From the NCBI GenBank assembly GCA_025056865.1, contig JANWVO010000038.1, forward strand, positions 175,587 to 239,586: a DNA stretch of 64,000 nucleotides, written 5' to 3'. Below the pieces are notes generated by a model. It was not told the origin of the DNA. It saw nothing but the letters and a program-made list of their open reading frames with translations, and ran no database searches. Shown one piece after another: positions 3,165 to 41,043 of this stretch. This DNA comes from Bryobacteraceae bacterium. Lineage in GTDB: Bacteria > Acidobacteriota > Terriglobia > Bryobacterales > Bryobacteraceae. Each line of letters begins with the position of its first letter. Position 1 is the first letter of the stretch. The position numbers and the translations under genes were made by a program.

Positions 3165-4025
3165 ATGCCATCATCTCTGAACTGGATGGACTGGAAGCCA
3201 TTGCTGATCATTCTGGCCACCTGGGTGATGCTTTCCTGGCTGGCTCACCGTTCCGTTTTCCTCCCCATGAAGTACCCTGCTGGCGAATGGCAGGAAGCCC
3301 ATGCCCTGGGCGTGGAGGAGGTCAAGTTGCCGAGCGGCGGCTTCCGAATCCACGGCTGGTGGAAGCCGATCCCCGGAGCGCAGGCAGCCGTCCTGTTCCT
3401 CCACGGCAATGCAGGCAATGTGAGCCACCGGGGAAGGCACATCCGCGCCTGGCAGCAGGCAGGCGCCTCGATCCTTGTGCCCGATTGGCGCGGCTACGGG
3501 AAAAGCGAAGGAAGCCCCAGTGAATCAGGACTTTACGAAGATGCGCTGGCGGGCTATGAGTTCCTTCGCCGCCGCGGCTTCCCGCCGGAGCGGATCCTGG
3601 TTCATGGCGAGTCGCTGGGGACCGTGGCGGCAGCCGATGTGGCGGCACGGCAGCCGGTGGCGGGGCTGATCCTGGAAGCGCCCTTCCCCTCGGCGCGCGC
3701 CGTGGCGCAGACGCTGTTGCCGCTGCTGGGTCCAATGCTGATCTGGGGCTATGACCTGCGCAGCCGGCTGCGGCAGGTGCGGGCGCCGGTGCTGGTGATT
3801 CATGGCGACCGGGACGAGGTGATTCCCTTCCGGCTCGGGCGGGCGGTCTTTGAGGCCGCCAACGAGCCGAAGGAGTTCTGGATTGTGCCGGGCGCGGGGC
3901 ACAATGACCTGCCGGAGACAGCGGGCTGGGACTACCCGCAGCGGCTGAGACGATTTCTGCAAACGGCGCTTGAGTCCCGGGCGGTTCGATCCGCCGCAGC
4001 TCCCGGCGGATCCGGTGCGCCCTGA
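3165..4025 (+). CDS. Alpha/beta-fold hydrolase (BAAT/DLH-like serine hydrolase) with N-terminal membrane anchor
   Basis: Lower part of ORF 2820..4025. The upstream part overlaps dnaK antisense, so I take the ATG at 3165 (MPSSLNWMDWKPLLIILATWV, a hydrophobic anchor). Motifs: HGNAG, the GESLG nucleophile elbow, HGDRDEVIP, GAGHND. Confidence 0.8.
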   Translation: MPSSLNWMDWKPLLIILATWVMLSWLAHRSVFLPMKYPAGEWQEAHALGVEEVKLPSGGFRIHGWWKPIPGAQAAVLFLHGNAGNVSHRGRHIRAWQQAGASILVPDWRGYGKSEGSPSESGLYEDALAGYEFLRRRGFPPERILVHGESLGTVAAADVAARQPVAGLILEAPFPSARAVAQTLLPLLGPMLIWGYDLRSRLRQVRAPVLVIHGDRDEVIPFRLGRAVFEAANEPKEFWIVPGAGHNDLPETAGWDYPQRLRRFLQTALESRAVRSAAAPGGSGAP

Positions 4026-4302
4026 ACCTCCCGCCCGGCCGGCGCTGACGGCTGGCTGCGTCCGCGCGGGCGCGCCAAGGCTCTTTCCCGGCGGATGGGG
4101 GCGATTCAGTTCCGCATCCGCCACAGGGAGGTTGCGATTCAGGATGACCCGCCCCACCGGCTCCCGCCTCTGGATCCGCCTGCGCGTCCCTCGTCCGGCC
4201 CCCCGCGTCCGGCAGCTCCCGTGCTTTCTTGCCATGCGCGGCTCTGGCCGGCACGGAGAGCGGAAAGCCAGCCCGAGGCGCTGTCTTGAAACTGCCGCAG
4301 CC

Positions 4303-4788
4303 TCAGTCTGCGCTCTTGCGGAAAACGGCGATGGCCTCGATTTCCACCAGCAGCTCCGGGCGGCACAGGATGGCCTGGATGCCGGTGGAGGCAGGCAGCG
4401 GGTCGAGACCCTGCTCCTGGTAGAAGCGGGTGCGCTCTTCGTTGAACGCCTCGTAGTCGCGCTCGATGTCGCGCAGGTAGCAGGTGGTGCGGACGACGTC
4501 TTTCCAGGTGGCGCCTTCGCTGGCCAGCAGCCCGGTGATGTTGTGGAACGTCCGGCGCACCTGGGCGCGGAAGTCGCCGATGTGCACGCTGCGGCCGTGC
4601 TCGTCGATGGAGGCCGTGCCGCTGATCAGCAGCACGACGATGTTGCCGAACTCCAGCCGGATGCCGCGGGAGAAGGAGCTGGGCTTTGCGTACTGGTAGG
4701 CCTCGTTGAGGACCTGCGGATTCGAGATGGCCTTTTTCTCGATGGAAACGGCCTTCGCGGCTTCGGCCAGAGCTTCTTCGAGCCTCAT
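4303..4788 (-). CDS. YjgF/RidA-fold (Rid superfamily) protein
   Basis: Internal ATG at 4788, preceded by GGAGG (MRLEEALAEA...). Its start overlaps the upstream stop as ATGA. The ISGTASI motif and the C-terminal YLRD...F and VEIEAIAV segments are typical of the YjgF/L-PSP fold. Subfamily (RidA versus FkbO/Hyg5-like) is not resolved. Confidence 0.8.
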   Translation of the reverse strand: MRLEEALAEAAKAVSIEKKAISNPQVLNEAYQYAKPSSFSRGIRLEFGNIVVLLISGTASIDEHGRSVHIGDFRAQVRRTFHNITGLLASEGATWKDVVRTTCYLRDIERDYEAFNEERTRFYQEQGLDPLPASTGIQAILCRPELLVEIEAIAVFRKSAD

Positions 4789-5798
4789 GATGGAGAAACC
4801 TCCTGCAAAAAGACGGATGAAATGGAACGCCTGCCGGTGGAACCGAAGCGGCTGGCGAGCCGCTCCCGCACGGCAGGCCGGTTCGGCCCGGCTGCCTGAA
4901 TGCATTCTAACAACAGGGCCGTAGACTCATAGGCGAGCTGGAAGAATACGTCGCCTGAAACCTGGAAACGGGCCTCGCCGTCGCGAAGCAGCGCCGCGTC
5001 GGGCGTGGCGAGCGCGGGGGCAAGGACCGGCCTGCGAAGCTGTCCGCGGCAGGCCCGCGACCACGCCGACGGGCCGCAGAAGACCTCGGCGTCCCCGGGA
5101 AGCTCCGCCACGGCGCGACAGAGCGGCGCCGGCGGGGCGAGAACGACGACCACCGGGTGAGAGGGCGCAGGCGGGCGGTTCGGCGGCTGGAAGTCGTGCC
5201 GCTCCGCGGGCTGGAGGGTGCGGCTGAGCACGCGCGCCAACTGGCGCGAGCCGTGGTCGGTGGCGGCCAGCAGCGAGTAGGGCCTGCGGCCGATGGCGCC
5301 GGCGATGGCGCGCGCCAGCAGCGAATCGCCCGGAGCCCAGGAGAAGATCCACGGCACGAAAGCGGCGTTGGCCGTTTCGTCCGTGGAGACGGGATCCACC
5401 ATCGGAAACAGCGCCTTGGCGGCCACCTGTTCTGCCAGGTGCGTGGTGGCGCTGTCGATGCCGCCGACCAGGGCGACAATGCGGTCTTCGAAGGCGAGCT
5501 TCGCCACGGCGGAGGCCCCGGCCCGCCACGGATCGTCCGACCAGCGGGAGAAGAGCCGGAACGGCCTGTCCTCCCCGGACAGGCGGGCGTTGGCGTGCTC
5601 GATGGCCAGAGCGACGCCCATGTAGACCGTGCCACCGGCCGGATGGCGGGGATCGTCCGGACCGAAAAAGCCCAACGGCACGTAATCCAGCTCCCCGGCG
5701 CCGGTCTGCGGCAGCTCGCCGGGCTGTGCGGGCGCACGCCGCCGGTCGATGTACGGCGCCGCCGCCTGCACAGCCAGGAAATGCCGCCGCGTGATCAT
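4785..5798 (-). CDS. Type-1 periplasmic binding protein (LivK/Peripla_BP_6-like), second copy, divergent
   Basis: 337-aa ORF. N-terminus MITRRHFLAV has a twin-arginine-like motif. The core (GVALAIEHANARL...IVALVGGIDSATT...AKALFPMVDPVSTDE) resembles the N-lobe of Leu/Ile/Val-type binding proteins. Confidence 0.65.
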   Translation of the reverse strand: MITRRHFLAVQAAAPYIDRRRAPAQPGELPQTGAGELDYVPLGFFGPDDPRHPAGGTVYMGVALAIEHANARLSGEDRPFRLFSRWSDDPWRAGASAVAKLAFEDRIVALVGGIDSATTHLAEQVAAKALFPMVDPVSTDETANAAFVPWIFSWAPGDSLLARAIAGAIGRRPYSLLAATDHGSRQLARVLSRTLQPAERHDFQPPNRPPAPSHPVVVVLAPPAPLCRAVAELPGDAEVFCGPSAWSRACRGQLRRPVLAPALATPDAALLRDGEARFQVSGDVFFQLAYESTALLLECIQAAGPNRPAVRERLASRFGSTGRRSISSVFLQEVSPS

Positions 5799-5799
5799 C

Positions 5800-7275
5800 T
5801 CACTTCGTTTCGGCAGGGTTCAGCAGGCCGCGGGCGGTGCGCTCGCGCGGCGGGACGTAGCCGCGCGGAATGCCAAGGTCTTCGCGCGAGTAGTAGCGCC
5901 AGCGGCCGCCTTCGAACTTCGCCAGATACACCTCTCCGGCGTCGTCGAGCACGGCGGAGAAGGGGATGTCGCCCGTCACGCCGGGCCACGGTTTGGAGCG
6001 CGTGGCCAGGATGTCGCGGATCTTGGCGCGGTTGAGTCCAGCCACCTGGATGGCCCAGATCAGCATGTTCATGCCGTCGTAGGCGTGGGCGGCGTAGGTA
6101 TCCGGCTCGTCGTTGAAGCGCTTGCGGAAGCGCTCGCGGAACTCGGCCAGCCGCGGGTTGCTGGAATCCGGGTTCCAGGGAAAGCCGGCGATGACGCCCT
6201 CGGCGTGCGGCCCGGCGATCTGGAGGAACTCCTTCGACACGGCCCGGTCCGAGGTGAGAAACGGCTGGTTCAAGCCGCGCTCGCGGAGCTGTTTCAGGAT
6301 GATGGCCGCTTCGCGCGCGTCGCCCCAATGCACGATCACGTCGGGCTTGACCTCGGCGATGCGGTCGATCTGGAGCGAGTAGTCGTCCTGGCCGAGCTTG
6401 TAGGCCATCTCGATGACGACCGGGCGGCCAAGACGGCGGGCCGAGTCGCGGATCTCGCGCACGCCGAAGCGGCCATAGCGGTTGGAGGCGCGGATGATAG
6501 CGATGCGCCTGTAGTCCATCTTGCGGATCATGTAGTCGACCATGAGATAGCCCATCTGGCGGTCGTCGCCGATGCAGCGCATCGTCCAGGGGATGTTGGT
6601 CTCGATGTAGGTGGGGTCGGTGTCGCCCGTGTTCATCACCACGACCTCGGCCTTCAGGGCGACGCGGATGGCGATGTGGGAGTTGGCGCCGTCGATGGTG
6701 CCGAGGATGGCCCAGACCTTGTCCTTGTAGGCGAAGTTGACGATCTCGTTGCCGCTCGAGCCCCAGAGGCCGTTGTCGTTGGTGACCACCAGCTCGAAGG
6801 GGATCCTGCGCCGCAGGTAGCCGCCTTTGGCGTTGGCCTCCTCAATGGCGAGACGCGCGCCCTGGAGCATCTTGATGCCCATCGGCTCCTCGTGGCTGGC
6901 GCCGCCGGTGGCGATGGAGACGGTGCTCATGATGGGGCCGATGAAGCCGATCTTGACGGTCTTGACGTCCTCGGGCTCGGGGATGGCGCGCCCCGGCCCG
7001 TTGTACTGCATCTGCTCGAGGAAGTGCTCCTTGTAAGGCTTGATCTTGCCGTAGGGTTCGTAGTCGATGGGTGTTTTCGCGTAGGACGTCTCGCGCCGCA
7101 GCCGTAGGTCGGGCACCTCGTACGGCCCGACCGAGTTGATCCGGCGGAGCACCTCGAGCGTGTCCTCGTCGACTTCGACGCCGGGAGGCACCAGCGGCTC
7201 GTTGGCAGGCGGCTTCCTGGGCGCGTCGGAGGCGAACAGCACGGTGGCGGCAAGCAGAGGAAGAAGGCGTCTCAT
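5800..7275 (-). CDS. ABC-type substrate-binding protein, LivK/branched-chain amino acid (Peripla_BP_6) family, orphan
   Basis: 491-aa ORF with a signal peptide (MRRLLPLLAATVLFA). KIGFIGPI...GARLAIEEANAKGG...WAILGTIDGANSH...DTYAAHAYDGMNMLIWAI are typical of type-1 PBPs of the amino-acid/amide family. Confidence 0.85.
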   Translation of the reverse strand: MRRLLPLLAATVLFASDAPRKPPANEPLVPPGVEVDEDTLEVLRRINSVGPYEVPDLRLRRETSYAKTPIDYEPYGKIKPYKEHFLEQMQYNGPGRAIPEPEDVKTVKIGFIGPIMSTVSIATGGASHEEPMGIKMLQGARLAIEEANAKGGYLRRRIPFELVVTNDNGLWGSSGNEIVNFAYKDKVWAILGTIDGANSHIAIRVALKAEVVVMNTGDTDPTYIETNIPWTMRCIGDDRQMGYLMVDYMIRKMDYRRIAIIRASNRYGRFGVREIRDSARRLGRPVVIEMAYKLGQDDYSLQIDRIAEVKPDVIVHWGDAREAAIILKQLRERGLNQPFLTSDRAVSKEFLQIAGPHAEGVIAGFPWNPDSSNPRLAEFRERFRKRFNDEPDTYAAHAYDGMNMLIWAIQVAGLNRAKIRDILATRSKPWPGVTGDIPFSAVLDDAGEVYLAKFEGGRWRYYSREDLGIPRGYVPPRERTARGLLNPAETK

Positions 7276-8426
7276 TTGTCTTCCCTCCGGTTTTCGGCCA
7301 GCATGCGCGGGCGCTCGCGCAGGCCGGAGTAATAGCCTTCGCCGATGCCCCAGGCAAGGCCCTTGGCGGTGGCGACGAAGACGTCGCGGTCGTCGACGTC
7401 GATGGCGATGATGAAGTTGTGGGGCAGATTCAGCCCCATCTCGACCGTTTCGAGCACGGTCTTGTCGCGCGTGACGACGGCCTTGCCGGTGTCCGACTTC
7501 GGATCGCGCGTATAGGCGACCCAGGTGTTGGTCTCGGCGTCCATGATGGCGCCCAGCCCCTTGTCGGAGGCGAACCAGGCTTCGCGGCCGCTGCGGGCGC
7601 GGAGGTTGTTGTTGAAGTCCGAGGGCAGGCCGGAGTCCATGTTGTAAAAGCCGCGCCAGTTGCGGCCGTCATAGCGGGCCGCGCCGAAGTAGGAGGACAC
7701 CCAGATGACGCCGTCGACGTAGTTGGCGCCGGTGGTGATGACGTGGATGATGCCGTCGTCGCGGTACAGGTCGATCTCCATCTCGCCGTCGGGGTCGAGA
7801 TAGTCTTTCCAGCGGTTGGTCTTCACGTCGTACTCGAGCACGCCGGAGCCCCAGACGGCCAGGTGGACCTTGCCGTCGCGGTAGTGCACGCCGTAGTTCC
7901 AGATCTCTTCCATCGGCGCGTTCTTCTCGGTGAAGATGGTCCACTCGCCGGTGACGGTGTTGAAGCGGGAGGCGCCGGCGGTGGTGGCGGCCCAGACATT
8001 GTCATTTTCGACGGCGACGCCGTAGACGACGTCGTTGACGAGGCCCGAGTTGAGCTGGTGCCAGTGGTCGAAGCGGCCGCCGCTGAGGCGGGCGAGCCCG
8101 CCGCCGAACAGGCCCAGCCAGACGTCGCCCGTCTTCGGGTCGACGTCGATGGCGGTGACCACGCGCCAGGGCAGCCCGTCCTTCTCCGTCCAGACCTTCA
8201 CTACCCTGGCGGTCTTCTTGTCGATGAGCGCGAGGCCGTTTTCGGTGCCCACCCAGATGCGGTCGCCGTCGCTCTTGACGGCGAAGATGTGGTCGTCGGG
8301 CAGGCCGTCCTTGACCGTGAACTGCTTCCACTTCGTGTAGACATAGGGCAGCTTCTCGGCGCCCGGCTCGGCAGCCAGGGCGCATGCGAGGGCAAGCAGG
8401 AGCAGGCAAGAGGCAGCGTGTCTCAT
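7272..8426 (-). CDS. Secreted stand-alone beta-propeller protein (two-component-regulator-propeller/Reg_prop-like repeats)
   Basis: 384-aa ORF with a signal peptide (MRHAASCLLLLALACALA). It has repeated GLPxD/N..V..I..D..G.iWvGT-type blades (DGLPDDHIFAVKSDGDRIWVGTENGL, DGLPWRVVTAIDVD...VWLG, SGLVNDVVYGVAVENDNVWAAT). ATGA overlaps at both ends. Confidence 0.7.
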   Translation of the reverse strand: MRHAASCLLLLALACALAAEPGAEKLPYVYTKWKQFTVKDGLPDDHIFAVKSDGDRIWVGTENGLALIDKKTARVVKVWTEKDGLPWRVVTAIDVDPKTGDVWLGLFGGGLARLSGGRFDHWHQLNSGLVNDVVYGVAVENDNVWAATTAGASRFNTVTGEWTIFTEKNAPMEEIWNYGVHYRDGKVHLAVWGSGVLEYDVKTNRWKDYLDPDGEMEIDLYRDDGIIHVITTGANYVDGVIWVSSYFGAARYDGRNWRGFYNMDSGLPSDFNNNLRARSGREAWFASDKGLGAIMDAETNTWVAYTRDPKSDTGKAVVTRDKTVLETVEMGLNLPHNFIIAIDVDDRDVFVATAKGLAWGIGEGYYSGLRERPRMLAENRREDK

Positions 8427-11224
8427 AGCGTTTTCAGAAACTCGATCAGGTCGTTGAGCTGATCCTTGGTCATGTCGTTGGTGACCCCGTGCTTGTCGTA
8501 CGGGTTGTACACGGTCCAGATCTCTTCGAGCGTTTTCGCCATCCCGTTGTGCAGGTAGGGCGCGGAATCGTAGATGTTGTTCAGGTGCGGGACATCGAAC
8601 AGCCCGGTGCGGTCGAGCGCCTGTCGGGTGCCGACATCAAAGCGGCGGCGGTTGGTGTAGTAGGGCGCCGGGTGGCAGAAGTAGCAGCGGCCTTCGGGCG
8701 GGATGAGCCTTCCGTCGTTGGTGTGCGTGCGGTAAAAAAGATCTTTGCCGCGGCGCTGCGCCGGCGTGTAGCGCGTGCCGGGCGTGTAGTAGCGGTTGGG
8801 CGGGCGGCGGATGGTGCTGATGTAGTAATCGACGGCGTCCAGCTCTTCGGGCGTGAACGGCAGGTTGCGGGTGAAGAAGACCGAGAGCCGCGCGCCGCAC
8901 TGCCGCTTGAGCGAGGGGTTGGTGCCCTCCCACTTGAACGGCGCGGTGTCGCCGATGCCGCGCAGCGTGCGGTTGTCCACCGGAGAGACGCCGATGCCGT
9001 CCGGCTCGATGTCATACGTAATGCCGTCCACATGGCCGTCGGGATGGCAGGAGTGGCAGGAGTACTGGTAGCGGAAGGTGATCTTCGCGTTGTGGAACAG
9101 TTTCTCGCCCCAGCGCTGCCTGGTGATCTCCTTCGGACCGTTCAGGGAGATCTTGCCGGCCATTTCCAGAGTGGCCAGGTCGATGACGCCGATGGAGTCA
9201 TCGAGGCAGTTGGCGACGTAGGCGCGGCGGCCGTCGGGCGAGATGGCAAGACCGCGGGGGCTGTCTGCGGTCTCGAGGGTCTTGACCAGGAACTCGGCGG
9301 CCTTGCCCAGATGGTTGGGCAGCACGTGCTGCCGCTCGTGGTCGGAAGCGCCCGTGAGCAGCCGTTCCAGGCGCGCCAGGTCGACCACCGCGATGCGGTT
9401 GGTTCCTGAGCTCGTGACCAGCGCGTAGCGGTTGTCCGGCGTGATGCGGACGTCGGTGGCGTCGGCGAAGCCGAGGCCCGGCTGATCCAGCAGCACCTGA
9501 TCGGTGCGCCCGTCGGGCCAGATGATGGCGATGCCGTTGGTGATGGTCCAGCCCTGCAACAGGCGCGTCATCGGCACCAGGTTCTTGGTCCGGTTCATGG
9601 TGGCGATGGCGAAGCGGCCGTCGCGGCGCCAGTCGATGCCCATCATGAGGTTGGTGCCATCGATAAGCCAGCGGTCGCGCACGCGCGCCGTCCGGGCGTC
9701 GATGACCGTCAGCTCGCTCGCCAGCGGCTTGCGGAAGCCGGTGAGGTTGGAATACATGCTGGTGACGAAGATGGTGGCGCCGTCCGGGGCGAGCGCAGCC
9801 TCCCAGGGGCCGCGGCCGGCGGCGAGCTTCTTTTCGAAGGCGAGCGTGCGGGCGTGGAAGACGTGGATGTCCTCCGAGGACGTGTTCAGCACGAGCACGT
9901 GTTCATCGCCCGGCGTGACGATGACGCCGTGGGGCTCGTCGCCGACGCGGAGCGTGTCCACCACCTTGCGGGCGGCGGCGTCGATGACGGTGACGGTGTC
10001 GTCCTCGCGGTTGGTGACGAAGGCGCGGCGGCCGTCGCTTGTGAAGGCGATGCCCGTAGGCTCGCCGCCGGTGCGGATCTCGGCCAGCACCCGCCTTGTG
10101 CGCGTGTCGACGACGGCGACGGCATCGGCGGCGGCCAGCGTCGCCCAGAGCTCGCCCGTGCCGGGACGGAAGGCGAGCCGCAGCGGGTTCTTGTAGCGGA
10201 CCTCCGCTTTCCGCTCGGGCAGTTTCGTCGGGTGCGCGATCAGCTTCCAGGCTTCGGCCGCGTTGAACGTCCGGCCGTGAGCGGGGTTGTGGCAGCTCAT
10301 GCAGTCGGCCAGCGAGCCGCGCTTCAGGCCGGCGGCGCGCGCCGCCTCGGGGTCGCGCATGATCGCGTCGGTGGCATAGTTCTTTCCCGGGCCGTGGCAG
10401 GCCTCGCAGCCGACGCCTTCTTCGGTGCGGCCGCCGACGGCGTGGCAGCGGAGGCAGGCCGGGCTGTGCTGGGGATCGCCCTCCACTTTCATCTCGCGCG
10501 CCAGCTCGGCGGCGCGCGGCGTGGCCAGCACCGCCCAGGCGCGCGCATGCGGGCTGCGCCGCCAGACGTCGTACTGATGGCCGTGATCGAGGCCGTTGTG
10601 GCAGGAGCCGCAGGCCGCGGATCCGATCACGCCGGGCGCGTCCGCTTCGCGGATGGCGCCCACGCGGGACGGCTTCGGCAGCGGATGCGCGATCTGCTTC
10701 CATGCCTCGTCGATGTTGACCGTGGGGTTCTTCAGCACGGCGATATGCGAGCCCTTCTCGAGATGGCAGACGAGGCAGTCATCGCGGGTGGGCATGCGCA
10801 GGCCGGCCGCCATCGCCGCCTTGCGGTCGCGCATCACCGCTTCGGTGGCATACTCGCTGCCCGGCCCGTGGCAGGCTTCGCATTGCAGGCCATCTTCGCG
10901 GCGGAACGTTTCGGGATCCATCTCGCGTTCGTCGGCGCCGAACGCGGTGGAATGGCATCCGAGGCAGATGGCGGCCTTCCAGGGCTCTTCGCGCAGGCCG
11001 CTGATGCGCGCGATTTCCCAGGATTCCGGCCGCGACAGCGCCGCATACGCCTGGGCGTGCTTCGACAGCAGCCACCTACTGTACTGGTGGCCCATGCCGG
11101 GGCCGTTGTGGCAGGTGGCGCATACGCGCGAGCCGACGTAAACAGGCTTCGGCGGCGCCCCGCGGGAGATGAAGACGAGCGGCGCCAGCGCGGCCGCCGC
11201 CATGATCCATGCGACCCTTCTCAC
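8423..11224 (-). CDS. Multiheme cytochrome c (8 CxxCH, c554-like) fused to a YVTN beta-propeller and a di-heme cytochrome c peroxidase/MauG-like domain
   Basis: Lower part of ORF 8423..11776; the upper part overlaps the preceding gene. Proposed start is the GTG at 11224 (GTGA overlap), giving MRRVAWIMAAAALAPLVFI, a signal peptide. The alternative is the ATG at 11203. Ten CxxCH motifs: CATCH, CLGCH, CEACH, CLVCH, CGSCH, CLRCH, CEACH, CMSCH, CHSCH, CYFCH. YVTN-like repeats include TGIAFTSDGRRAFVTNREDDTVTVID. The C-terminus (PHLNNIYDSAPYLHNGMAKTLEE) is typical of the CCP/MauG family. Confidence 0.85.
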   Translation of the reverse strand: MRRVAWIMAAAALAPLVFISRGAPPKPVYVGSRVCATCHNGPGMGHQYSRWLLSKHAQAYAALSRPESWEIARISGLREEPWKAAICLGCHSTAFGADEREMDPETFRREDGLQCEACHGPGSEYATEAVMRDRKAAMAAGLRMPTRDDCLVCHLEKGSHIAVLKNPTVNIDEAWKQIAHPLPKPSRVGAIREADAPGVIGSAACGSCHNGLDHGHQYDVWRRSPHARAWAVLATPRAAELAREMKVEGDPQHSPACLRCHAVGGRTEEGVGCEACHGPGKNYATDAIMRDPEAARAAGLKRGSLADCMSCHNPAHGRTFNAAEAWKLIAHPTKLPERKAEVRYKNPLRLAFRPGTGELWATLAAADAVAVVDTRTRRVLAEIRTGGEPTGIAFTSDGRRAFVTNREDDTVTVIDAAARKVVDTLRVGDEPHGVIVTPGDEHVLVLNTSSEDIHVFHARTLAFEKKLAAGRGPWEAALAPDGATIFVTSMYSNLTGFRKPLASELTVIDARTARVRDRWLIDGTNLMMGIDWRRDGRFAIATMNRTKNLVPMTRLLQGWTITNGIAIIWPDGRTDQVLLDQPGLGFADATDVRITPDNRYALVTSSGTNRIAVVDLARLERLLTGASDHERQHVLPNHLGKAAEFLVKTLETADSPRGLAISPDGRRAYVANCLDDSIGVIDLATLEMAGKISLNGPKEITRQRWGEKLFHNAKITFRYQYSCHSCHPDGHVDGITYDIEPDGIGVSPVDNRTLRGIGDTAPFKWEGTNPSLKRQCGARLSVFFTRNLPFTPEELDAVDYYISTIRRPPNRYYTPGTRYTPAQRRGKDLFYRTHTNDGRLIPPEGRCYFCHPAPYYTNRRRFDVGTRQALDRTGLFDVPHLNNIYDSAPYLHNGMAKTLEEIWTVYNPYDKHGVTNDMTKDQLNDLIEFLKTL

Positions 11225-12873
11225 TGCGCCTTCCTCCGCGCTTCCGCCTTGTGGCGGAGCCTGAGAACCTGATTGGCCCGCACTCCGGCGAGCTTTTCCA
11301 CCACGCCGTCCGGCCAGCGGATCTCGACGTCGCACACCGTGGCTCCGCCCAGCCCGAAATGGAGCCGCGGATCGCCCTGCCCGAGATAACCGCGGACCGG
11401 GTTGACATCCTCCACCATGCGCAGCCCGTTGGCCGCCACCGTCACGCGCGCGCCCACCGCCGTGCGCGAGCCGGTGGGGAAGTCCAGGCGCGCATCCACC
11501 ATCAGCCAGGGACGCGCGTTGCCGCCGTCGTTGCGCAGCAGCACCGGCGCGTCGTTGAGGTTGACTACCAGCAGGTCGATGTCGCCATCGTTGTCCATGT
11601 CGGCCCAGGCGGCGCCGCGGCCGACGCGCTTGGTTTCGAAGTAAGGCCCGGCTTCGCGCGAAACGTCTTCGAAGGTGCCGTTCTGCCGGTTGCGGCTGAG
11701 GCTGTCCTCCTGCACGTACTCGTGGTGCGCGTGGCCGTGGACGGTGAACAGGTCCAGCCAGCCGTCGTGATCCCAATCGAACATCACCGAGCCCCAGCCG
11801 GCGTACTGGCCGAGCAGCGGCGCCAGGCCGGCGGCGTCGTTGAGGTTTTCAAAGAAGCCCTTCTTCGGGTTGTAGACGAAGAGCGACACATAGTTGAGGT
11901 TCGGCACGAACAGGTCCAGCCAGCCGTCGCGGTTGACGTCGCCGTAAAACGGGCCCATCGACGCCACGCCCTGGCCGTGCTCGCTGAAGGCCAGCTCGAA
12001 CTCGAGGCCCTTCTCCGAGAACGTGCCGTCGCCGTTGTTGAGGAAGAAGTAATTCTCCATCGCGTCGTTCGACGTGAACACGTCCATGCGGCCGTCGTTG
12101 TTGAAGTCGGCGGCGGTAACGCTCATGGCGCGCCCGCCCGGCCTCCACATGCCGGCCTCTTTGGTGACATCGGTGAAGGTGCCGTCGCCGTTGTTGCGGT
12201 AAAGGATGCTGGGCAGGCCCTGGTAGCTGAGCGGGCCCGGGTAGCCCTGCGCCGGGTAGAAGTCGCGGAACTTGCCGTCGTCGTACAGCAGATAATTGGC
12301 GACGTAGACGTCCAGCCAGCCGTCGTTGTTGTAGTCGAACCACACGGCATGGAGCGACCAGCGGGCGTCATCGAGGCCGGACTGCTTCGAGACGTCGGTG
12401 AAGGTGCCGTCGCCGTTGTTGCGGTAAAGGATGTTCGGCCCGTAGTTGAGCACGTACAGGTCGACGTCGCCGTCGTTGTCGTAGTCGGCGGCGGAGCAGC
12501 CGGAGCCGTAGACCTTGCTGGCCACGCCGGCCTTTTCGGTCACGTCCTCGAACTTCCCGCCGCCGAGGTTGCGGTAGAGGCGGTTGGAGAGCCTGCCGCG
12601 GAGATCGCGCCCGTCGTTGTCGCTGACGCCTTTGGTCCAGACGCCGGTGACGAAGTAGATGTCCTGAAGCCCGTCGTTGTCGAAATCGAAGAAGCAGGCG
12701 CCGGCTCCCGTGCCTTCGACGATGTTGTCCAGCTTGTGGTCGCCGATGCTGTGGCGGAAGCGGATGCCCGCCGCTTCAGTAATGTCGCTGAACACAGGCC
12801 CGCGCGGCGGAGCCGAAGCGGCCGCCGCCAGCGCCGCCGCCAGCACGGCAGCGTGTCCCACGAGCGCTCTCAT
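11221..12873 (-). CDS. CRTAC1-family protein: FG-GAP/VCBS repeats with C-terminal ASPIC/UnbV domain
   Basis: 550-aa ORF with a signal peptide. It has multiple D.DNDG..D repeats (FDFDNDGLQDIY, ADYDNDGDVDLY, FDYNNDGWLDVY, ADFNNDGRMDVF, DVNRDGWLDLF, DWDHDGWLDLF, DMDNDGDIDLL). The C-terminal GARVTV...RGYLGQGDPRLHFGLG is typical of UnbV_ASPIC. Confidence 0.88.
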   Translation of the reverse strand: MRALVGHAAVLAAALAAAASAPPRGPVFSDITEAAGIRFRHSIGDHKLDNIVEGTGAGACFFDFDNDGLQDIYFVTGVWTKGVSDNDGRDLRGRLSNRLYRNLGGGKFEDVTEKAGVASKVYGSGCSAADYDNDGDVDLYVLNYGPNILYRNNGDGTFTDVSKQSGLDDARWSLHAVWFDYNNDGWLDVYVANYLLYDDGKFRDFYPAQGYPGPLSYQGLPSILYRNNGDGTFTDVTKEAGMWRPGGRAMSVTAADFNNDGRMDVFTSNDAMENYFFLNNGDGTFSEKGLEFELAFSEHGQGVASMGPFYGDVNRDGWLDLFVPNLNYVSLFVYNPKKGFFENLNDAAGLAPLLGQYAGWGSVMFDWDHDGWLDLFTVHGHAHHEYVQEDSLSRNRQNGTFEDVSREAGPYFETKRVGRGAAWADMDNDGDIDLLVVNLNDAPVLLRNDGGNARPWLMVDARLDFPTGSRTAVGARVTVAANGLRMVEDVNPVRGYLGQGDPRLHFGLGGATVCDVEIRWPDGVVEKLAGVRANQVLRLRHKAEARRKAQ

Positions 12874-14204
12874 TTCGAACCTCCGTTGGATATCCAGGCC
12901 GGAGCGGTCAGCTTCACCGGCTTGCGGATCAGCGCCTTCGCCTCGCGGTTCTCCGGCGTCAGCTCGGGATCCTCATGGCAGCCGATGCAGCCGCGGTTCT
13001 CCTTTGGCCGGGTATACATCCAGGCCGAAGTCCGCACGGCGCGGCCCGCCGCGTCCGCAAGCTCCAGCTTCAGCGGCGTGTTGGGGGGCACCTCCAGGTG
13101 GAAGGAGCCGTCGTCCTCGATGCGCAGGTCTCCGATCTTGCGGGGGTTGTCGAACGGAGCCGTGTACACGCGCAGCCGCCATGCCTGGCCCGGACGGATC
13201 CGCTCCGGCTGATCGGTGGTGAAGACGCTGAGGCAGTAGAGCCGGCTCCAGCCGGCGCCTTCCTCCACCACGGATCCGCGGCCTTCCGGCTCGGGGCGGG
13301 CGATTACCGGCCGCGCCTGCCGCAGGTCCGACCCGGGTTTCACATAAACGGGAACTTTTGTTTTATTCGCGGGATGGAAACGGTAGATGCCCGCCGGCGT
13401 CCGGGCATCCGGCTGCCAGCTCACCAGCAGGCGCCCGCCGGGCAGCCCCGCCGGCGTGGAAAAGATGCCGTCGGAGGGGCGCGTCAGCTCGCGGCGCGTG
13501 CGCAGCGGGCGGATGAGATCCACGCTGGCCAGCACGCCCTCGCCGTCGACGAAGACGAGCCTGCCGTCCATCGTCACCGCAGGCTCGCGGAGCTTCTCGC
13601 CGGGCAGATAGAGCGAATAGTCCGTGCCGTCCAGGTTCACGGCCATGATCTGCGAACGCCCGCCCTGCCGGGAGGCGAACACCATCATGCCGTCGGGCAG
13701 CATGGTGGCGTCGGACTCCTGCCACGGCGTGAAAGTGATGCGCTGCCGCAGCGTGCCGTCGAATTTCACCGTGTGCAGCGCTCCGCCGCAGAAGAAGGCC
13801 GCCTGCGGCCAGGGATCGGGAATGTCCAGGCTGAAGATCTTCGACTGGTAAGCGGGCCGGCGGCAGTCGCTGGCCATCTTCGTCAACTGCCGGACGGCGC
13901 CGGTGGCGAGCGTCATCTCGTAGATCTGCCACGGCTCCGCAGCGGTCTTCTTTCCGGCGAACAGGATCCGCTTCGCATCCCAGGAAACATCGGGATCAGC
14001 GGCGGCGAAGAAGCCCTGGCTGAGAAGGCGGACGGCGCCGGAAGCCTCCAGCAGCAGGAGGCGCGGCTGGCCGCCGGGCGGGGTCTCGGTGAACACAATC
14101 GGGTGGCGTCCGCCGCCAGACGGCGCGGGCGCGCCCGCCACGGCCGGTGCGAGCACGGAGAGAGCGAGAATACAGGACCGGAAAATCCTCTTTAAGACCC
14201 GCAC
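12870..14204 (-). CDS. PD40/TolB-like beta-propeller protein with a C-terminal single heme c-binding motif
   Basis: 444-aa ORF, GTG start, signal peptide (MRVLKRIFRSCILALSVLAPAVAGA). PD40-like blades (DPDVSWDAKRILFAGKK...WQIYEMTLATG; MLPDGMMVFASRQ...SQIMAVNLDG). The C-terminal beta-sandwich-like segment ends in RPKENRGCIGCHEDPE. Confidence 0.7.
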   Translation of the reverse strand: MRVLKRIFRSCILALSVLAPAVAGAPAPSGGGRHPIVFTETPPGGQPRLLLLEASGAVRLLSQGFFAAADPDVSWDAKRILFAGKKTAAEPWQIYEMTLATGAVRQLTKMASDCRRPAYQSKIFSLDIPDPWPQAAFFCGGALHTVKFDGTLRQRITFTPWQESDATMLPDGMMVFASRQGGRSQIMAVNLDGTDYSLYLPGEKLREPAVTMDGRLVFVDGEGVLASVDLIRPLRTRRELTRPSDGIFSTPAGLPGGRLLVSWQPDARTPAGIYRFHPANKTKVPVYVKPGSDLRQARPVIARPEPEGRGSVVEEGAGWSRLYCLSVFTTDQPERIRPGQAWRLRVYTAPFDNPRKIGDLRIEDDGSFHLEVPPNTPLKLELADAAGRAVRTSAWMYTRPKENRGCIGCHEDPELTPENREAKALIRKPVKLTAPAWISNGGSK

Positions 14205-14291
14205 TGAAGTCAGTCTATGGGCAACCCGGTCCGGATGCCAATCCGCGCAGGATATTACTGGGAACCGATTAGAAAAAACTGCGCAACCCGG

Positions 14292-14475
14292 TCAGCAGGC
14301 CCCGCACTCCCTCAGCGTGCGGCTTCCCCGTGGGTCGCGGGTCCGGCCAAGGATCAGCATGAGCCGGATGCCCGCCCTGGCGGCGTGGAGCGAGTCGGCG
14401 AACAGGACGCCGCGCTGGCGGAGGCCGCGGCCGCTTCCTTCAACGCCGGAGAGATCGGGCGGGCGGCCAATGGCG
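14292..14475 (-). pseudogene. Duplicated, diverged 3' fragment of the adjacent L-asparaginase gene
   Basis: About 184 nt align without gaps to 14482-14665 (the real 3' end) at roughly 80-85 percent identity by my hand count. The fragment translates to ...GSGRGLRQRGVLFADSLHAARAGIRLMLILGRTRDPRGSRTLRECGAC*, versus the real ...GSGHDLRQRGVLFAGTLNAAKARIRLMLILGRTSDPREIRTLMECGAY*. I found no start codon at its upstream end. Confidence 0.7.
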
Positions 14476-14481
14476 TAGGGT

Positions 14482-15465
14482 TCAGTATGCTCCGCACTCC
14501 ATCAGCGTGCGGATCTCCCTCGGGTCGCTGGTGCGGCCAAGGATCAGCATGAGCCGGATGCGCGCCTTGGCGGCATTGAGCGTGCCGGCAAACAGGACGC
14601 CGCGCTGGCGGAGATCGTGGCCGCTTCCTTCGTAGCCGTAGATATCGAGCACGCGGCCGTGGGCGCAGCGCGTGGCGATGACGACGGGGATGCCCGCATC
14701 CAGGGCGCGCTGAATGGCGGGCACGGCCTGCGGGGTGACGTTGCCGCGGCCGGTGCCCTCCACGACGATGCCGCGGGCGCCGCTTTCCCGCGCGAAGTCG
14801 ATGAAACGGCCGTCGGCGCCGGCGCACATCGTCACCAGGTCGACCCGCGGCTCCAGGCGCGGGGCGTCGATCACGATGCGGTCCACCAGGCGGCGGCCGA
14901 AGATCACGCGGTCCACGTCCACCAGCCCCAGCGGACCGAACACGGGGCTTTGGAAGGTCTCCAGTTGCTGCGTGTCCGTCTTGGTGGCTTCGCTGGCGGC
15001 GTGGATCATCTGGTTCAGCACGACGAACACGCCCTGGCCGCGTGCCTGCGGACTCAGCACCGTGCGGATGGCCGCCGAGAGATTCGCCGGGCCGTCAAAG
15101 CCCGGCTCGTTCACCGTGCGCATCGCGCCCACCACCGCCACCGGCTTCGGCGACGTGTGGCGCAGGTCCAGCAGGTAGGCCGTTTCCTCCAGCGTGTCCG
15201 TGCCGTGGGTGACCACTGCGCCCGTAATGTCCTTGCGCCCGATCTCCCGGCGCAGGATCTCGCTGACCTCCCACATCCGTTCCAGGGTCATGTGGGGGCC
15301 GGGATAGCGGCCGTATTCGAAGACTTCGAGATCGGCGAGCTGCTGGAGGGCGGGGTCGTGCTCGAGCAGCTCCCGCGCGCCCAGCGCAGGAACCGCAGCG
15401 CCGACCTGCGGATCGAACCGCATGCCGATGGTTCCGCCGGTAAACAGGATAAGCACGCGCGCCAT
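14482..15465 (-). CDS. ansA: L-asparaginase (type I/archaeal-bacterial family)
   Basis: ORF 14482..15549. I prefer the ATG at 15465, preceded by GGGAG. MARVLILFTGGTIGM and VTHGTDTLEETAY are the two asparaginase signature regions. Confidence 0.9.
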   Translation of the reverse strand: MARVLILFTGGTIGMRFDPQVGAAVPALGARELLEHDPALQQLADLEVFEYGRYPGPHMTLERMWEVSEILRREIGRKDITGAVVTHGTDTLEETAYLLDLRHTSPKPVAVVGAMRTVNEPGFDGPANLSAAIRTVLSPQARGQGVFVVLNQMIHAASEATKTDTQQLETFQSPVFGPLGLVDVDRVIFGRRLVDRIVIDAPRLEPRVDLVTMCAGADGRFIDFARESGARGIVVEGTGRGNVTPQAVPAIQRALDAGIPVVIATRCAHGRVLDIYGYEGSGHDLRQRGVLFAGTLNAAKARIRLMLILGRTSDPREIRTLMECGAY

Positions 15466-20982: not shown

Positions 20983-23900
20983 TCAGAAGTTCACGCGCAG
21001 CGCGAGCTGGATGACGCGCCAGCTCTCGCCGTTCTGGTTGGTGGTGGCGGAGCTGGCCGTGGACAGCGTCACGCAGCAGGTCTGCCCGAACACGGTGGAG
21101 GTGATGGCGGGCGAGCCGACGCTGGCATCGCGCGGATTGCGGAAATTGGGGTGGTTGAACGCGTTGAAGAATTCGGCGCGGAAGGTGACGCGGATGCGCT
21201 CCGTCGCCGCTACCTGCTTGGCCAGCGCGGCATCGAGGTTGCGGAAGCTGGGCCCCTGGAAAATGTTCCGGCCCAGCCCCAGCTCGCCCGGCTCGGGGAA
21301 CGTGAATGCGCTGGCATCCTGGAACAGCACGGGACCGATGACGCCAGCCTTTTCCTGAAGCTTCGCTTTCGGCAGGCTGGCGCCCGGCGCAAGCGCCGCG
21401 CGCGACTGCGCCGAGGCATTGTGCGTGAGCGCGCCGGAGCGCACCGTGAAGGGTTCGCCGGACTGATACGTGTAGAGTCCCGAGATGCTCCAGCCGCCGA
21501 TGAGCCCGTTCAGCAGGCCGCCGGCGTTGCCAAGCCACGTTCTGCCGCGGCCGAAGGGCAGCTCGTAGACGCCGGCGATGTTGAGCACGTGGCGCTGGTC
21601 GTAGTCGGACAGGGCGCGCTCATTGCGGTAGTTGCGGGCGTCGGCGGGCGTGCGGGCGGCGGTGGTGGTCAGGCCGCCGCCGACGGTGGCGTGCACGGGG
21701 TCGAGCGAGAGGTTGTCGATCGACTTGCCCAGCGTGTAGGCGGCGTTCAGCAGCAGGCCCGCGCGGTCGAAGCGGCGGCGCACGGCGAACTGCGCGGAGT
21801 GGTAGATCGAATCGCCGCCGTTGTCGACATACATGATCTGGGCGAACTGCGGATTCGGGCGCAGGCGCGCGGCCAGGGTGCTCTGTTCAATGCGGTTGCC
21901 GAAGCTGCCGGCGGCGTTCTGCGCCAGCTCGGACTGCGTCTGCGAGCTGTTGGCGAAGGCCGCCGTAATCAGGCCCTGGCGGATGATGGGCACATCCTGC
22001 GCGCCCGGGCAAGGCGCTCCGCTCGCCAGCGTCCCATCGGGCCGGCAGCCGCCGCCGAGACGCAGGTTGTGGCGCATGGCGAGGAAGGAAGGCAGGATCG
22101 GCGTGACATCGATCTGGTTGGCGTCATAGGCGCGGTACAGGCGCGTGCCGCGGCGCCCCACGTAGGCGGCGCTGACCAGAAAGCCGCCGGGCAGCTCGCG
22201 CTGAATGTCGAAGTTCCACATGTGGACCGTCGGCATCTGGAGGTTCTGGTCGAATACGCGCACCGGAGGCGCGTTGGTGACCACCTGCGCCGGCGGCGAC
22301 AGGAAGCTGGAGGGCTTCACCGTCGGCGGCGGCAGCTCGCGCGGGAAGCCCTGGCCGAGGCGCACGTCGGGCACGGAGGCGCAGCCTGGCGTGGTGACCA
22401 GCGCGCCGCCGCTGCCGGAAAACTGCGAGCTGCAACGGTAGGTCTGGCCGGGCACGGACGTCGCCACGCTGGTCACAATGAACGAGCCGAGCGGGTCGAA
22501 GGCCATGCTGTAACCAGTGCGGAAGACCGTGCCGCGCAGTCTTGAGGGCGCCCAGGCGAAGCTGATGCGCGGCGCCACCGCGCCCAGGTTCCGGTTCTGA
22601 TACCAGCGCTTCGCCGGGACGAACGTGACCGGGCCGTCGCGGCCATCGATCATGCGGTCCGGCACGTAGACGCGGCCGCCGGCTTCCGTCGGCGGCAGGT
22701 TGATCTCCCAGCGCACGCCATAGTTCATGGTGAGATTCGGCCGCAGCTTCCACTCGTCCTGCGCGTAGAAGTTGTACTGCTTCAGGCGCTGCCCCTGCGC
22801 CCAAAGCGTCACGCTCTTGTCCCCGGTCTGGAAGGGCAGGAAGGCGTCGCTCTTGAGGTCGCCGAGGAAGACCTGCGTGAGGCCGGCGGGAATGCCCAGC
22901 AGATCGTTGATCATGCCCTGGAGGCGGTTGAGATCTACGGCCGCGATGCCGGGCCGCGAGCCCGAGGCCACTGCCGGCAGCGTGAAGCCCGCCGGCGGGC
23001 GCGTGGTGCGCGACAGCGAAATGGCCGGCACGAGGCTGGTGCCGCCGACGTCGCCGCGCTGATCGTTGTGCTGATAAAAGCGGAGGTTGGCTCCGAACCG
23101 GTAGACGTGGCGGCCGGTGATGAAGCTCAGGTTCTCGACGATCTGCGGCGTGGTGACCGCGCGGAACGTGCGCGGATTGGCGGTGTAGTCGACGTCGGAG
23201 TTGTTGAAGGTGAACCTCGGCTGGTTGGGGAAGTCCGGGTGCGCCTCGCCCTGCGTGAACAGGAACGAGAAGCGGGCCAGCCCGAGCGTCAGCTCATTGA
23301 CCACGCGCGGAGAGAGCACGCTGCGGATGCCGATGGCGATGTTCTTCGCCGGCCGGAACACTTCGCCGCGCGGCGGGAAGCCGGGCAGCACCGCGGGGCG
23401 GCCGTTGAGCGGGTCGCCGCCGAGCGTCTGCTGGTCGGCGCCCAGATAGCGGCCGAAGATGGAGTGCTTCGAGGAGAGCTGGTGATCGATGCGGAACATG
23501 TAATGCGGCCCGCGGATGCGGAACGGCGTGTTCCAGACATAGATGCCGGTGTTCAGCCCGTCGCCGGCGGTATAGGAATTCGGCGCCGGATAGCGGCCAA
23601 GCACGGACTTCACCAGCGGATCGATGCCCCGGCCGAGAGGATCGGCCGTGAAGATGTTGAACGACGCGATGCAGTTGGTGTCTCCCGCGCTCTGGCAGTC
23701 GCGGACGCCGGGCGCATAGCGGCCGGTCACCGGATCCACCAGCACGGGCGAGTTCTGCGTGATGCGCTGGCCATTGATGACCAGAGGGTTCACGGGATCC
23801 GCCACCCAGTAGCGGAACACGCCGTTCAGCGCCGCCGGCGTGTACAGGTCCACCGATTCGCCGAACGCCTTGTCGATGGGATCGGCGAAGTTCACCTTCT

Positions 23901-24789: not shown

Positions 24790-24885
24790 TGCGAGCCCCC
24801 TATGGATGGCAATCCCCGCGGACGCGGCGAGTATGTGATGTTGGGTACCACATCGCCGCGCTTCTGTCAAGGATTCCGCAGGCGC

Positions 24886-37584: not shown

Positions 37585-38031
37585 TCAGAGGTTCTCGTCC
37601 AGCCGGCGGGCCAGATCCTGGAAGTAAGGATGCCGCGCCTCCCGCCGGAGCCTCTCGACGAACTGCTCCGCCCACCGCAGGTGCTCGTCCTCGAACTTTT
37701 CCAGCACGTCGGCCGGCTCGCCGTCGGCCAGCAGCTTCGCGTAGAAGAGGAGCAGCAGGCCCAGGTGGTCGGCCGGCTCGTTCTTCGCCGCCGGCTCGAA
37801 CCCATAGCGGCGGTACCAGGCGAGCGCCCGGTGGTGGGCCTCGCCGAACAGTTGCGGCGGCTTGCCCTCCTCCTTTTCGTACACCGACTGCCACAGCGGG
37901 CACGGCGACCCCTGCGGATTGAAGAAGAGCCGGTAGTATTCGATCGCCGCCTCCTGCTCTTCAGGCGGCTTCAGGAGCGCCTGGCCCAGCTCCGCATAGA
38001 GCTGGGCCAGATGCTCGCGCATTTCGCTCAT
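37585..38031 (-). CDS. TorD/DmsD-family redox-enzyme maturation chaperone
   Basis: 148 aa. YRLFFNP...PLWQSVY...EPADHLGLLLLFYAKL is typical of the Nitrate_red_del/TorD family. It overlaps the stop of the catalytic subunit by 4 nt. Confidence 0.75.
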   Translation of the reverse strand: MSEMREHLAQLYAELGQALLKPPEEQEAAIEYYRLFFNPQGSPCPLWQSVYEKEEGKPPQLFGEAHHRALAWYRRYGFEPAAKNEPADHLGLLLLFYAKLLADGEPADVLEKFEDEHLRWAEQFVERLRREARHPYFQDLARRLDENL

Positions 38032-40268: not shown

Positions 40269-40281
40269 GGCTGCCTCCCTG

Positions 40282-40836: not shown

Positions 40837-41043
40837 AGGATGACTCCTGGACAGAATCCACTCTGACCCGCCGCCCGTCCCTGCAATCCACTGCCCATCT
40901 CCGAGAAAAAGACCGGAAAGACTGATATTGATGAAAATTCCTGCATTGCGGCGCGCGCCCCCTGCGCCGGCGTGCAAGTCTTGCACGGCGCCTCCTGGAG
41001 AGGCCCGGCTCCCCTTGCCACCGCTGGGTGCTTATACCCAGTC

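Follow-up and report, generated by a model that had tools for sequence, protein, structure and literature searches.

What kind of protein joins ten c-type heme motifs, a beta-propeller and a peroxidase-like di-heme domain in one chain? The question is raised by a locus of a Bryobacteraceae bacterium (assembly GCA_025056865.1, contig JANWVO010000038.1), in which a stretch of 64,000 nucleotides, hereafter the window, carries a minus-strand gene for a 933-residue decaheme protein (8423..11224). A previous sequence-only reading had described this protein as a duplicated tetraheme module followed by a propeller and a di-heme domain. Its claims about the domains held, but it overlooked that the propeller and the di-heme domain correspond to the beta-gamma unit of hydrazine synthase (HZS), and that the gene belongs to a conserved cassette. 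In identity and architecture, the decaheme protein is very probably a fused beta-gamma-type subunit of a non-anammox, HZS-like periplasmic heme enzyme of the type published as clade I. Judging from the residues discussed below, it is not itself a hydrazine synthase.

The kinship with HZS is seen first in family searches. Among NCBIfam families, the best match of the decaheme protein is hydrazine_BC, followed by hydrazine_beta and hydrazine_gamma, with scores that miss the HZS equivalog cut-offs (NF052342, NF052340 and NF052341: 181.8/1250, 130.9/560 and 75.9/625 bits). It is clearest in the central seven-bladed YVTN propeller (amino acids [aa] 345-695; 9140..10192), whose nearest solved structure is the beta subunit of HZS from Kuenenia stuttgartiensis (PDB 5C2V, reportedly the structure of Dietl et al. 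2015). The YVTN repeat model TIGR02276 scores 125.2 bits against a cut-off of 27.85 over three stretches, Pfam YNCE and Cytochrom_D1 propeller matches cover aa ~345-690, and the search of solved structures returned 5C2V_B at E 8e-29. The AlphaFold2 (AF2) model of the region has a predicted local distance difference test (pLDDT) score above 90, and 5C2V_B was the top Foldseek match of the propeller model (TMt 0.89-0.90; root-mean-square deviation 2.9 Å). Because sequence match, model confidence and Foldseek rank agree, the centre is, as modelled, a propeller of the HZS-beta kind. The propeller of roughly 350 aa that the sequence-only reading had placed between a heme wire and the di-heme domain is thereby borne out by both profile searches and structure prediction, the two checks on which a centre of another fold could have come to light.

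As in HZS, the propeller also carries an insertion loop (aa 548-564, NLVPMTRLLQGWTITNG; 9533..9583), which aligns to the HZS beta-chain segment NWLPVCEAENGQVFT. That segment probably holds the beta245-260 tunnel loop, the beta-loop described for HZS, whose Glu is a Mg site (PMC12607021, PMC12758564). The loop is near-invariant in the family and has low pLDDT in both AF2 runs. The HZS Glu appears to be absent, R554 and L556 occupying the candidate positions (the exact HZS Glu numbering being our estimate), and this Glu is likewise lost in the published clade I-III homologs (PMC12758564).

The C-terminal domain (aa 700-933; 8426..9127) is a di-heme domain of the HZS-gamma/CCP/MauG type according to sequence matches, CCP standing for cytochrome c peroxidase. 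The full protein matches HZS-gamma (5C2V_C) at E 4.6e-16, and in phmmer searches the domain alone matches HzsC at 3.6e-17, the CCP of Nitrosomonas europaea at 1.3e-6, MbnH at 7e-6 and MauG at 0.02. The Pfam family CCP_MauG (PF03150) stays below threshold (21.1 against 25.6 bits), as does a RoxA-like cytochrome c match at the C-terminus; PF03150 is recorded for some relatives of the decaheme protein. The domain was modelled poorly in both AF2 runs, one of the full length with 54 sequences and one of aa 335-933 with 60, with pLDDT largely below 50 each time, and Foldseek returned no structural match for a CCP-like domain, its lists being saturated by propeller matches. The family matches support a CCP/MauG-type assignment of the C-terminus and, on a sequence basis, place the last two heme motifs (CHSCH and CYFCH) in this domain, as the sequence-only reading had it. 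The distal motif that it had called conserved, PYLHNGMAKTLEE, has L891, H892, G894, L899 and E900 invariant in 54 homologs.

Residues were compared in two alignments, A1 with 54 decaheme homologs and A2 with 60 more diverse sequences; the roles of HZS residues were taken from PMC12607021 and PMC12758564. The heme 9 motif (CHSCH, C723-H727; 9044..9058) is the equivalent of the gammaI site of HZS, with H727 at the position of the proximal gammaHis106. Hägglund et al. describe the roles of gammaHis106, of gammaCys165, which provides a third covalent link to the heme, and of gammaHis144 (PMC12758564). In the phmmer alignment with 5C2V_C, C776 falls at gammaCys165, and the 59 residues between H727 and C776 are exactly the gammaHis106-gammaCys165 spacing. 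Both residues are invariant in 54/54 decaheme homologs, as is Trp765, and a third thioether bond is predicted at C776. Among 40 di- and tri-heme relatives, 22 have Cys at this position and 18 have Asp.

The heme 10 motif (CYFCH, C847-H851; 8672..8686) corresponds to the gammaII electron-entry heme, which in HZS has bis-His ligation (PMC12607021). We predict the same for heme 10, with H851 and H912 as ligands, because the position of the CCP Met ligand is variable (Y909; Tyr in 10/20, by alignment only), whereas all 60 sequences of A2 share His912 of the motif DKHG (8489..8491), which aligns to the His of HzsC 'DMHG'. The alignment with bacterial CCP (bCCP), MauG and HzsC that the sequence-only reading had suggested thus predicts a His/His pair for the electron-transfer heme, neither His/Met nor His/Tyr.

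The N-terminal third of the protein is a tandem of two cytochrome c554-type tetraheme modules. Ten CxxCH motifs, the number given by the sequence-only reading, begin at aa 35, 87, 115, 150, 205, 257, 273, 308, 723 and 847 (counted from the GTG at 11224) and take up 20 of the 22 Cys of the protein; in 20,000 shuffles of the sequence, none gave more than 2 motifs. Pfam Cytochrome_C554 (PF13435) matches in two stretches with 90 bits against a cut-off of 20.8, with four CxxCH motifs per module. Module 1 (aa 27-185; 10670..11146) holds hemes 1-4 at C35, C87, C115 and C150, with H56, M131, H160 and H180 as invariant candidate distal ligands, and module 2 (aa 197-340; 10205..10636) holds hemes 5-8 at C205, C257, C273 and C308, with H226, M289 and H331 invariant and H316 present in only 25/54 homologs. 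The two units are 42% identical (E 3e-41), in keeping with the internal tandem duplication proposed earlier, and both were modelled, like the propeller, with high confidence (pLDDT about 75-90 for module 1). Module 2 matches cytochrome c554 itself (1BVB) at E 4e-5. The protein of N. europaea (CycA; 1BVB/1FT5) is a tetraheme module of the same Pfam family and serves in nitrifiers as electron relay for a multi-electron nitrogen enzyme, hydroxylamine oxidoreductase (HAO). Here, by contrast, the module is duplicated in tandem and covalently fused to an enzyme, and the c554 equivalog cut-off is missed (43.9 against 400 bits).

The chain appears to be exported. The mechanically called open reading frame (8423..11776; 1117 aa) exceeds the real gene by 184 codons and overlaps the preceding gene, as had been noticed before. 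The start is supported at codon 185, GTG 11224 (stop 8423..8425), by a GGAGG ahead of it, by a GTGA overlap with the TGA stop of the upstream gene and by the homologs, which are 919-957 aa long and start at the aligned position (M1 in 50/54 sequences of A1). The other start, ATG 11203, would cut off the charged n-region of what looks, by inspection, like a signal peptide. The corrected start exposes a predicted Sec signal peptide of 23 residues (VRRVAWIMAAAALAPLVFISRG|A; 11156..11224), in agreement with the consensus N-terminus of A1 and with the single exported chain that had been proposed. Since this peptide contains no Cys, the protein is probably not a lipoprotein.

The chain is part of a run of seven minus-strand genes, of which it is the third. 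The first encodes an HzsA-related protein of 444 aa (12870..14204) with a TolB-like propeller, an HZS_alpha middle domain (E 2.5e-17) and one CIGCH heme motif; its top PDB match is 5C2V_A (E 2.9e-18), it reaches 80.2 bits against the hydrazine_alpha cut-off of 800, and it lacks the alphaII cytochrome domain. Its homolog in Paludibaculum fermentans is 48% identical and bears the NCBI name 'HzsA-related protein'. The second is a CRTAC1-like FG-GAP/UnbV_ASPIC propeller protein of 550 aa with a signal peptide (11221..12873). Downstream of the decaheme gene follow a Reg_prop-type beta-propeller protein of 384 aa, also with a signal peptide (7272..8426), which varies least within the cassette (63-92% identity), and two LivK/HAAT-type periplasmic substrate-binding proteins (SBPs). 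SBP1 (491 aa; 5800..7275) has an N-terminal extension of about 100 aa, its Pfam LivK-type match beginning at aa 107, and SBP2 (337 aa; 4785..5798) has an N-terminal Tat-like TRRHFL motif. Both are orphans, with no ABC permease or ATPase encoded nearby. The last gene encodes a Rid-family (Ribonuc_L-PSP) protein of 161 aa without a signal peptide (4303..4788), joined to the SBP2 gene by an ATGA overlap. A canonical RidA imine deaminase as partner was considered and rejected: the protein reads PAS instead of PAR, and so lacks the catalytic Arg of RidA, and it carries no signal peptide. The cassette is translationally coupled, with 4-bp overlaps (ATGA or GTGA) at five junctions and a 1-nt gap at the sixth, between SBP1 and SBP2; GGAGG precedes three of the starts, that of the decaheme gene among them. 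A scan of 3900..14600 for promoters and terminators gave counts equal to chance expectation, and the lone promoter-like site just upstream of the alpha-like start is too near the start codon to convince.

With alpha-, beta- and gamma-type parts side by side, the cassette invites the reading that it encodes a genuine, previously unrecognised hydrazine synthase, in a host with cryptic anammox or another form of hydrazine production. The likeness to HZS is extensive: the beta-type propeller fold with its insertion loop, the gamma-type di-heme domain with the same order of motifs, proximal His and third Cys, and an alpha-type partner composed of TolB-like propeller, HZS_alpha middle domain and heme. 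The beta-gamma fusion, too, is known, from the HzsBC of Scalindua (PMC12758564; PMC10732223). Nevertheless, we consider this reading very improbable, since the defining residues of HZS chemistry have been exchanged. The decaheme protein is only about 22% identical to HZS, and the equivalog scores of the cassette are far too low (181.8/1250, 80.2/800 and 75.9/625). At the positions of gammaAsp168 and gammaHis144 stand Arg779 and Trp765, both invariant, and the beta-loop Glu is lost. In the HzsA-related protein, the heme has a canonical CxxCH His, and the Zn site (His587/Cys303), the alphaII domain and an equivalent of Tyr591 are missing; CIGCH is followed by EDPELTPEN..., and no Tyr occurs anywhere downstream of it. 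HZS relies on a separate soluble electron donor, whereas here eight additional hemes are fused to the subunit; the gene order is reversed relative to anammox bacteria, and the cassette includes additional proteins. The window holds no hydrazine dehydrogenase: no octaheme HAO/HDH-like gene was found in the 64 kb, in which the alpha-like gene has the only other CxxCH motif. Hägglund et al. reached an equally negative verdict for such homologs (PMC12758564).

Indeed, the architecture has already been published, and the window contributes a further ortholog of a functionally uncharacterised family, adding little to it. Hägglund et al. 2025 (Genome Biol Evol; PMC12758564) defined clade I of the HZS homologs, with members in Syntrophobacter fumaroxidans, Paludibaculum fermentans, Aquisphaera and Thermogutta, as carrying eight extra N-terminal heme motifs on the beta-gamma homolog that form two c554 domains, an FG-GAP/CRTAC1 gene that separates the alpha gene from the beta-gamma gene, and two genes for ABC substrate-binding proteins downstream. 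Clade I keeps gammaCys165, has Trp at gammaHis144, has lost the loop Glu and lacks alphaTyr591; the authors concluded that these proteins are not hydrazine synthases and proposed no function (PMC12758564). Earlier, Dalcin Martins et al. 2023 had raised the possibility of a wider family of HZS-like enzymes that use alternative substrates (PMC10732223). The window shares with clade I the two-c554 beta-gamma form, the gene order, the two downstream SBP genes and all four of these residue features. It differs in its host, a Bryobacteraceae-like Acidobacteriota genome, and in its alpha-like protein, which is short and has one heme motif (444 aa) although it stands beside a decaheme beta-gamma form of clade I; most alpha-like subunits of clade I have a second, alphaII-type heme site (PMC12758564). 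The main text of PMC12758564 does not mention the Reg_prop propeller, which we found wherever a contig extends past the decaheme gene, or the Rid-family gene, which is frequent. Nor did we find in that main text the predominance of Bryobacteraceae and Solibacteraceae, the three forms of the alpha-like protein described below, the change of Asp168 to Arg, or the conserved Gln775 and His731.

The survey of databases shows how constant the cassette is. More than 1,200 relatives of the decaheme protein were found in the protein database; the best 120, mostly from Bryobacteraceae, are 58-100% identical and 902-988 aa long, except for one 744-aa protein from a 2.6-kb contig, and have been given names such as 'multiheme c-type cytochrome' and 'YVTN family beta-propeller protein'. 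Among 185,579 species-representative genomes (one genome per species), 450 loci contain a relative. In the best 80 of these 450, almost all relatives are full-length and collinear over residues ~1-933, with one cut by a contig end. These 80 belong to Acidobacteriota (Bryobacteraceae, Solibacteraceae and Paludibaculum fermentans) and Planctomycetota (Pirellulales, Thermoguttaceae, Phycisphaerae and Sedimentisphaerales), together with single metagenome-assembled genomes of Verrucomicrobia and Deltaproteobacteria, so that the full decaheme form is found mainly in Bryobacteraceae/Solibacteraceae and Planctomycetota. The nearest related loci are about 80% identical and the P. fermentans ortholog 66%, and exactly ten CxxCH motifs are present in 73/75 loci. 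P. fermentans P105 carries its cassette at about 6.460-6.470 Mb of CP063849.1. It follows that a fusion produced artificially by frameshift, misassembly or read-through, which the sequence-only reading had named as a possible flaw, has next to no probability: the check revealed neither a frameshift nor an assembly join, the reading frame is uninterrupted in more than 120 protein clusters, and at least 80 genomes, of various phyla and assemblers, keep the fusion.

In 86/86 loci, as far as the contigs reach, a single strand carries alpha-like, FG-GAP, decaheme, Reg_prop, SBP1 and SBP2 in this order. Over 75 loci, the alpha-like protein was found as a short one-heme form in 14 (the type of the window), as a long one-heme form in 37 and as a long form with two hemes in 24, while the decaheme partner beside it hardly varies. 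A Rid gene adjoins the cassette in about 50 of 85 distinct loci, either just upstream of the alpha-like gene or downstream of SBP2, and its position tracks the alpha-like form, being downstream in 12 of the 14 loci with the short one. When the open reading frames around 85 loci were clustered, no quinol dehydrogenase, porin, regulator or ABC permease emerged as a further conserved partner; none of the families reached more than 15 loci, and the commonest consists of further CRTAC1-like paralogs. As no other flanking gene family is conserved, the cassette appears to be self-contained. Individual neighborhoods have their own companions. In a single case (L005, 4196..6005), the cassette lies divergently adjacent to amtB-glnK, encoding an ammonium transporter and P-II, an arrangement not conserved elsewhere. 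In L001 (3884..6853) and L003 (6812..9847), genes for a GFO_IDH_MocA oxidoreductase, an FGE-sulfatase-domain protein and an ApbE flavin transferase are found divergently upstream; this group occurs in 7 Paludibaculum and Bryobacterales loci and is absent from the window.

The number of hemes and the ecology of some hosts bring up another reading, namely that the protein is an extracellular or periplasmic electron conduit, for example for the reduction of Fe(III) or humic substances, in which the hemes are only wire and the propellers provide scaffold or binding. There are weak matches to models of the MtrC/OmcA/DmsE type, and Paludibaculum fermentans reduces Fe(III) and possesses many multiheme cytochromes (PMC8407742). 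These matches, however, miss their cut-offs (TIGR03507, 15 against 209.3; TIGR03508, 36.1 against 192.2), neither an outer-membrane porin nor a quinol dehydrogenase is conserved beside the cassette, and many hosts of the cassette are aerobes that do not reduce metals. Moreover, the di-heme domain keeps features of a catalytic kind, among them the third Cys and an invariant Arg, Gln and Trp. A mere conduit thus seems improbable to us.

Which reaction such a catalytic site would perform depends on a pocket of mixed character. Its heme 9 motif is followed by CHPDGH(V/I)D, in which H731 and D733 are invariant in the decaheme family and have no counterpart in HzsC. The segment Q775-C776-G777-A778-R779 (8888..8902) brings together the HZS-type Cys, an Arg, invariant in all 60 sequences of A2, at the position of gammaAsp168, and a Gln matching that of LKEQ in bCCP, a position at which HzsC has Val. 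In HZS, a distance of 4 Å separates gammaAsp168 from the iron of gammaI, and this Asp has been linked to the supply of protons at the distal water (PMC12607021). At the position of gammaHis144, the invariant Trp765 (8930..8932) aligns to the W of FWDG in 1IQC, 3O5C and 1ZZH, the inter-heme residue of bCCP.

These residues bear on the most substantial rival, in which the di-heme domain would reach a high-valent state by reaction with H2O2 or O2, as a peroxidase or as an oxidiser of the MauG/MbnH/RoxA type. It would either detoxify peroxide with electrons from the wire, or oxidise or cross-link an organic or protein substrate, which could be a co-encoded propeller or binding protein. An Arg near the heme distal site, such as R779 may be, is typical of peroxidases. 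The domain further resembles bCCP and MauG in having two CxxCH motifs, an inter-heme Trp in (F)W(D/E)G, an 'LK(E/R)Q' segment that includes Gln775, and a C-terminal P-Y-(F/L)-H-(D/N)-G ... TLEE motif, besides the matches to CCP, MbnH and MauG and the PF03150 records given above. Trp765 occupies the place of a Trp that is essential in bCCP and MauG and is His in HZS (PMC12758564). On the other side, HZS-gamma is nearer than CCP or MauG by about 10 orders of magnitude in E-value. The Met or Tyr ligand position of bCCP and of MauG/MbnH is not conserved, and an invariant His three residues further on is the likely ligand. No clear counterpart is seen of the catalytic Glu of bCCP, with T785/R786 at what we take, from the CCP numbering, to be its spacing. 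The extra heme-linking Cys, specific to HZS, and an obligatory HzsA-like partner have been kept, and the domain is fused to a propeller and a wire of eight hemes, which would be excessive for a two-electron enzyme. We therefore regard a peroxidase or oxidiser as unlikely, if more deserving of attention than the conduit.

The core of propeller and di-heme domain also exists without c554 modules, and in this form it is far more widespread: 1,473 representatives were counted at E<=1e-30, a large share of them with 610-680 aa. Propeller-CCP fusions of that size, named 'beta-propeller fold lactonase family protein' and found in Bacteroidota, Gemmatimonadota and others, have this core at 31-46% identity over the full length, with Trp765, Arg779, Gln775 and His912 invariant or nearly so. 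They differ from the decaheme protein in lacking the c554 modules and usually have one extra N-terminal heme motif.

Taken together, the decaheme protein most likely provides the catalytic subunit, with its own electron wire, of a two-site heme enzyme in the periplasm that acts on a small N-oxide or a peroxide. A fused beta-gamma-type subunit of an HZS-like enzyme working by the following route is the overall best explanation, and we hold it with moderate confidence. After Sec export, the protein would be loaded with ten hemes. The eight c554-type hemes would form a wire that carries several electrons from a periplasmic or membrane donor to heme 10 (His851/His912), from which they would pass via Trp765 to heme 9, the gammaI-like heme with proximal His727 and a third thioether at Cys776. 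The distal site of heme 9 would be open and lined by Arg779, Gln775 and possibly His731 and Asp733, and a small substrate, likeliest an N-oxide and alternatively peroxide, would there undergo a multi-electron reduction. By analogy with HZS, a channel along the loop aa 548-564 could then lead the product to the HzsA-related subunit and its heme, where it might meet a co-substrate delivered by the binding proteins. We favor an N-oxide because HZS-gamma is by far the nearest relative, because the protein has kept the Cys specific to HZS and the cassette its two-site alpha partner, because the fused relay is of the c554 type, and because the co-encoded binding proteins belong to an amino-acid/urea/amide family. 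The specific reductive mechanism on nitric oxide (NO), nitrite or hydroxylamine is put forward only tentatively.

Several points weigh against this account. Both a complex of the cassette proteins and a tunnel between them are assumed, by analogy with HZS. Judged by the residues of the pocket, peroxide chemistry appears equally compatible with the exchange of Asp168 for Arg and His144 for Trp and with the retained bCCP-type Gln and Trp. The placement of R779, H731 and H912 relative to the hemes is derived from alignment, the AF2 model being of low confidence there. Electrons may flow in the oxidative instead of the reductive direction, and for the route to work the last heme of the wire would have to lie within electron-transfer distance of heme 10. 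The hosts of the cassette comprise aerobic heterotrophs as well as strict anaerobes with no known special nitrogen metabolism. Finally, literature searches for functional or expression data led to two comparative-genomics papers on non-anammox homologs and to no experiment on any member of the family.

The remainder of the window encodes housekeeping functions (dnaK, rpoN, rpoD, dnaG, groEL and lpt genes) and a molybdoenzyme, and the tRNA and Rfam scans of the window gave no match. The molybdopterin oxidoreductase trio (37585..40986, minus strand), about 26 kb from the cassette, is composed of a 4Fe-4S subunit (40282..40986), a 746-aa catalytic subunit with molybdenum-bis(pyranopterin guanine dinucleotide) (38028..40268) and a chaperone of the Nitrate_red_del type (37585..38031). 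A 756-aa open reading frame (48318..50588, minus strand), beside a gene for an ABC ATPase (47522..48274), combines an LptC domain with two LptA/LptD_N-type domains and may represent a fused LptC-LptA bridge for lipopolysaccharide transport. Two outer-membrane barrels with CarboxypepD_reg and OMP_b-brl_4 domains, of 1295 aa (20983..24870, minus strand) and 1236 aa (42024..45734, plus strand), are typical of the TonB-dependent-like transporters of Acidobacteriota.

Hydrazine synthase has long been regarded as an enzyme without relatives, and cassettes of the kind described here are its nearest kin, with a bearing on the evolution of anammox chemistry. As the family is present in the cultured Paludibaculum fermentans, its function is directly testable. 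The pocket mixes features of HZS (the third Cys), of CCP (Trp and Gln) and of the family itself (Arg779 and His731), and this mixture, together with the constant company of four non-heme periplasmic proteins, suggests a chemistry that has been assigned to no enzyme yet. It is conceivable, though we think it decidedly unlikely, that the six invariant genes, with the frequent Rid gene, encode a new periplasmic machine by which Acidobacteriota and Planctomycetota of soils and sediments carry out two-site heme chemistry of the HZS type on substrates other than NO and ammonium. In such a machine, the Cys-cross-linked heme may, for example, reduce an N-oxide, and the HzsA-like heme may then join the intermediate to an amine or amino acid, which the orphan LivK-type binding proteins may supply. 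If this were true, the cassette would perform a new biological reaction outside the anammox bacteria, one that forms N-N or N-X bonds or leads to nitrogen loss.

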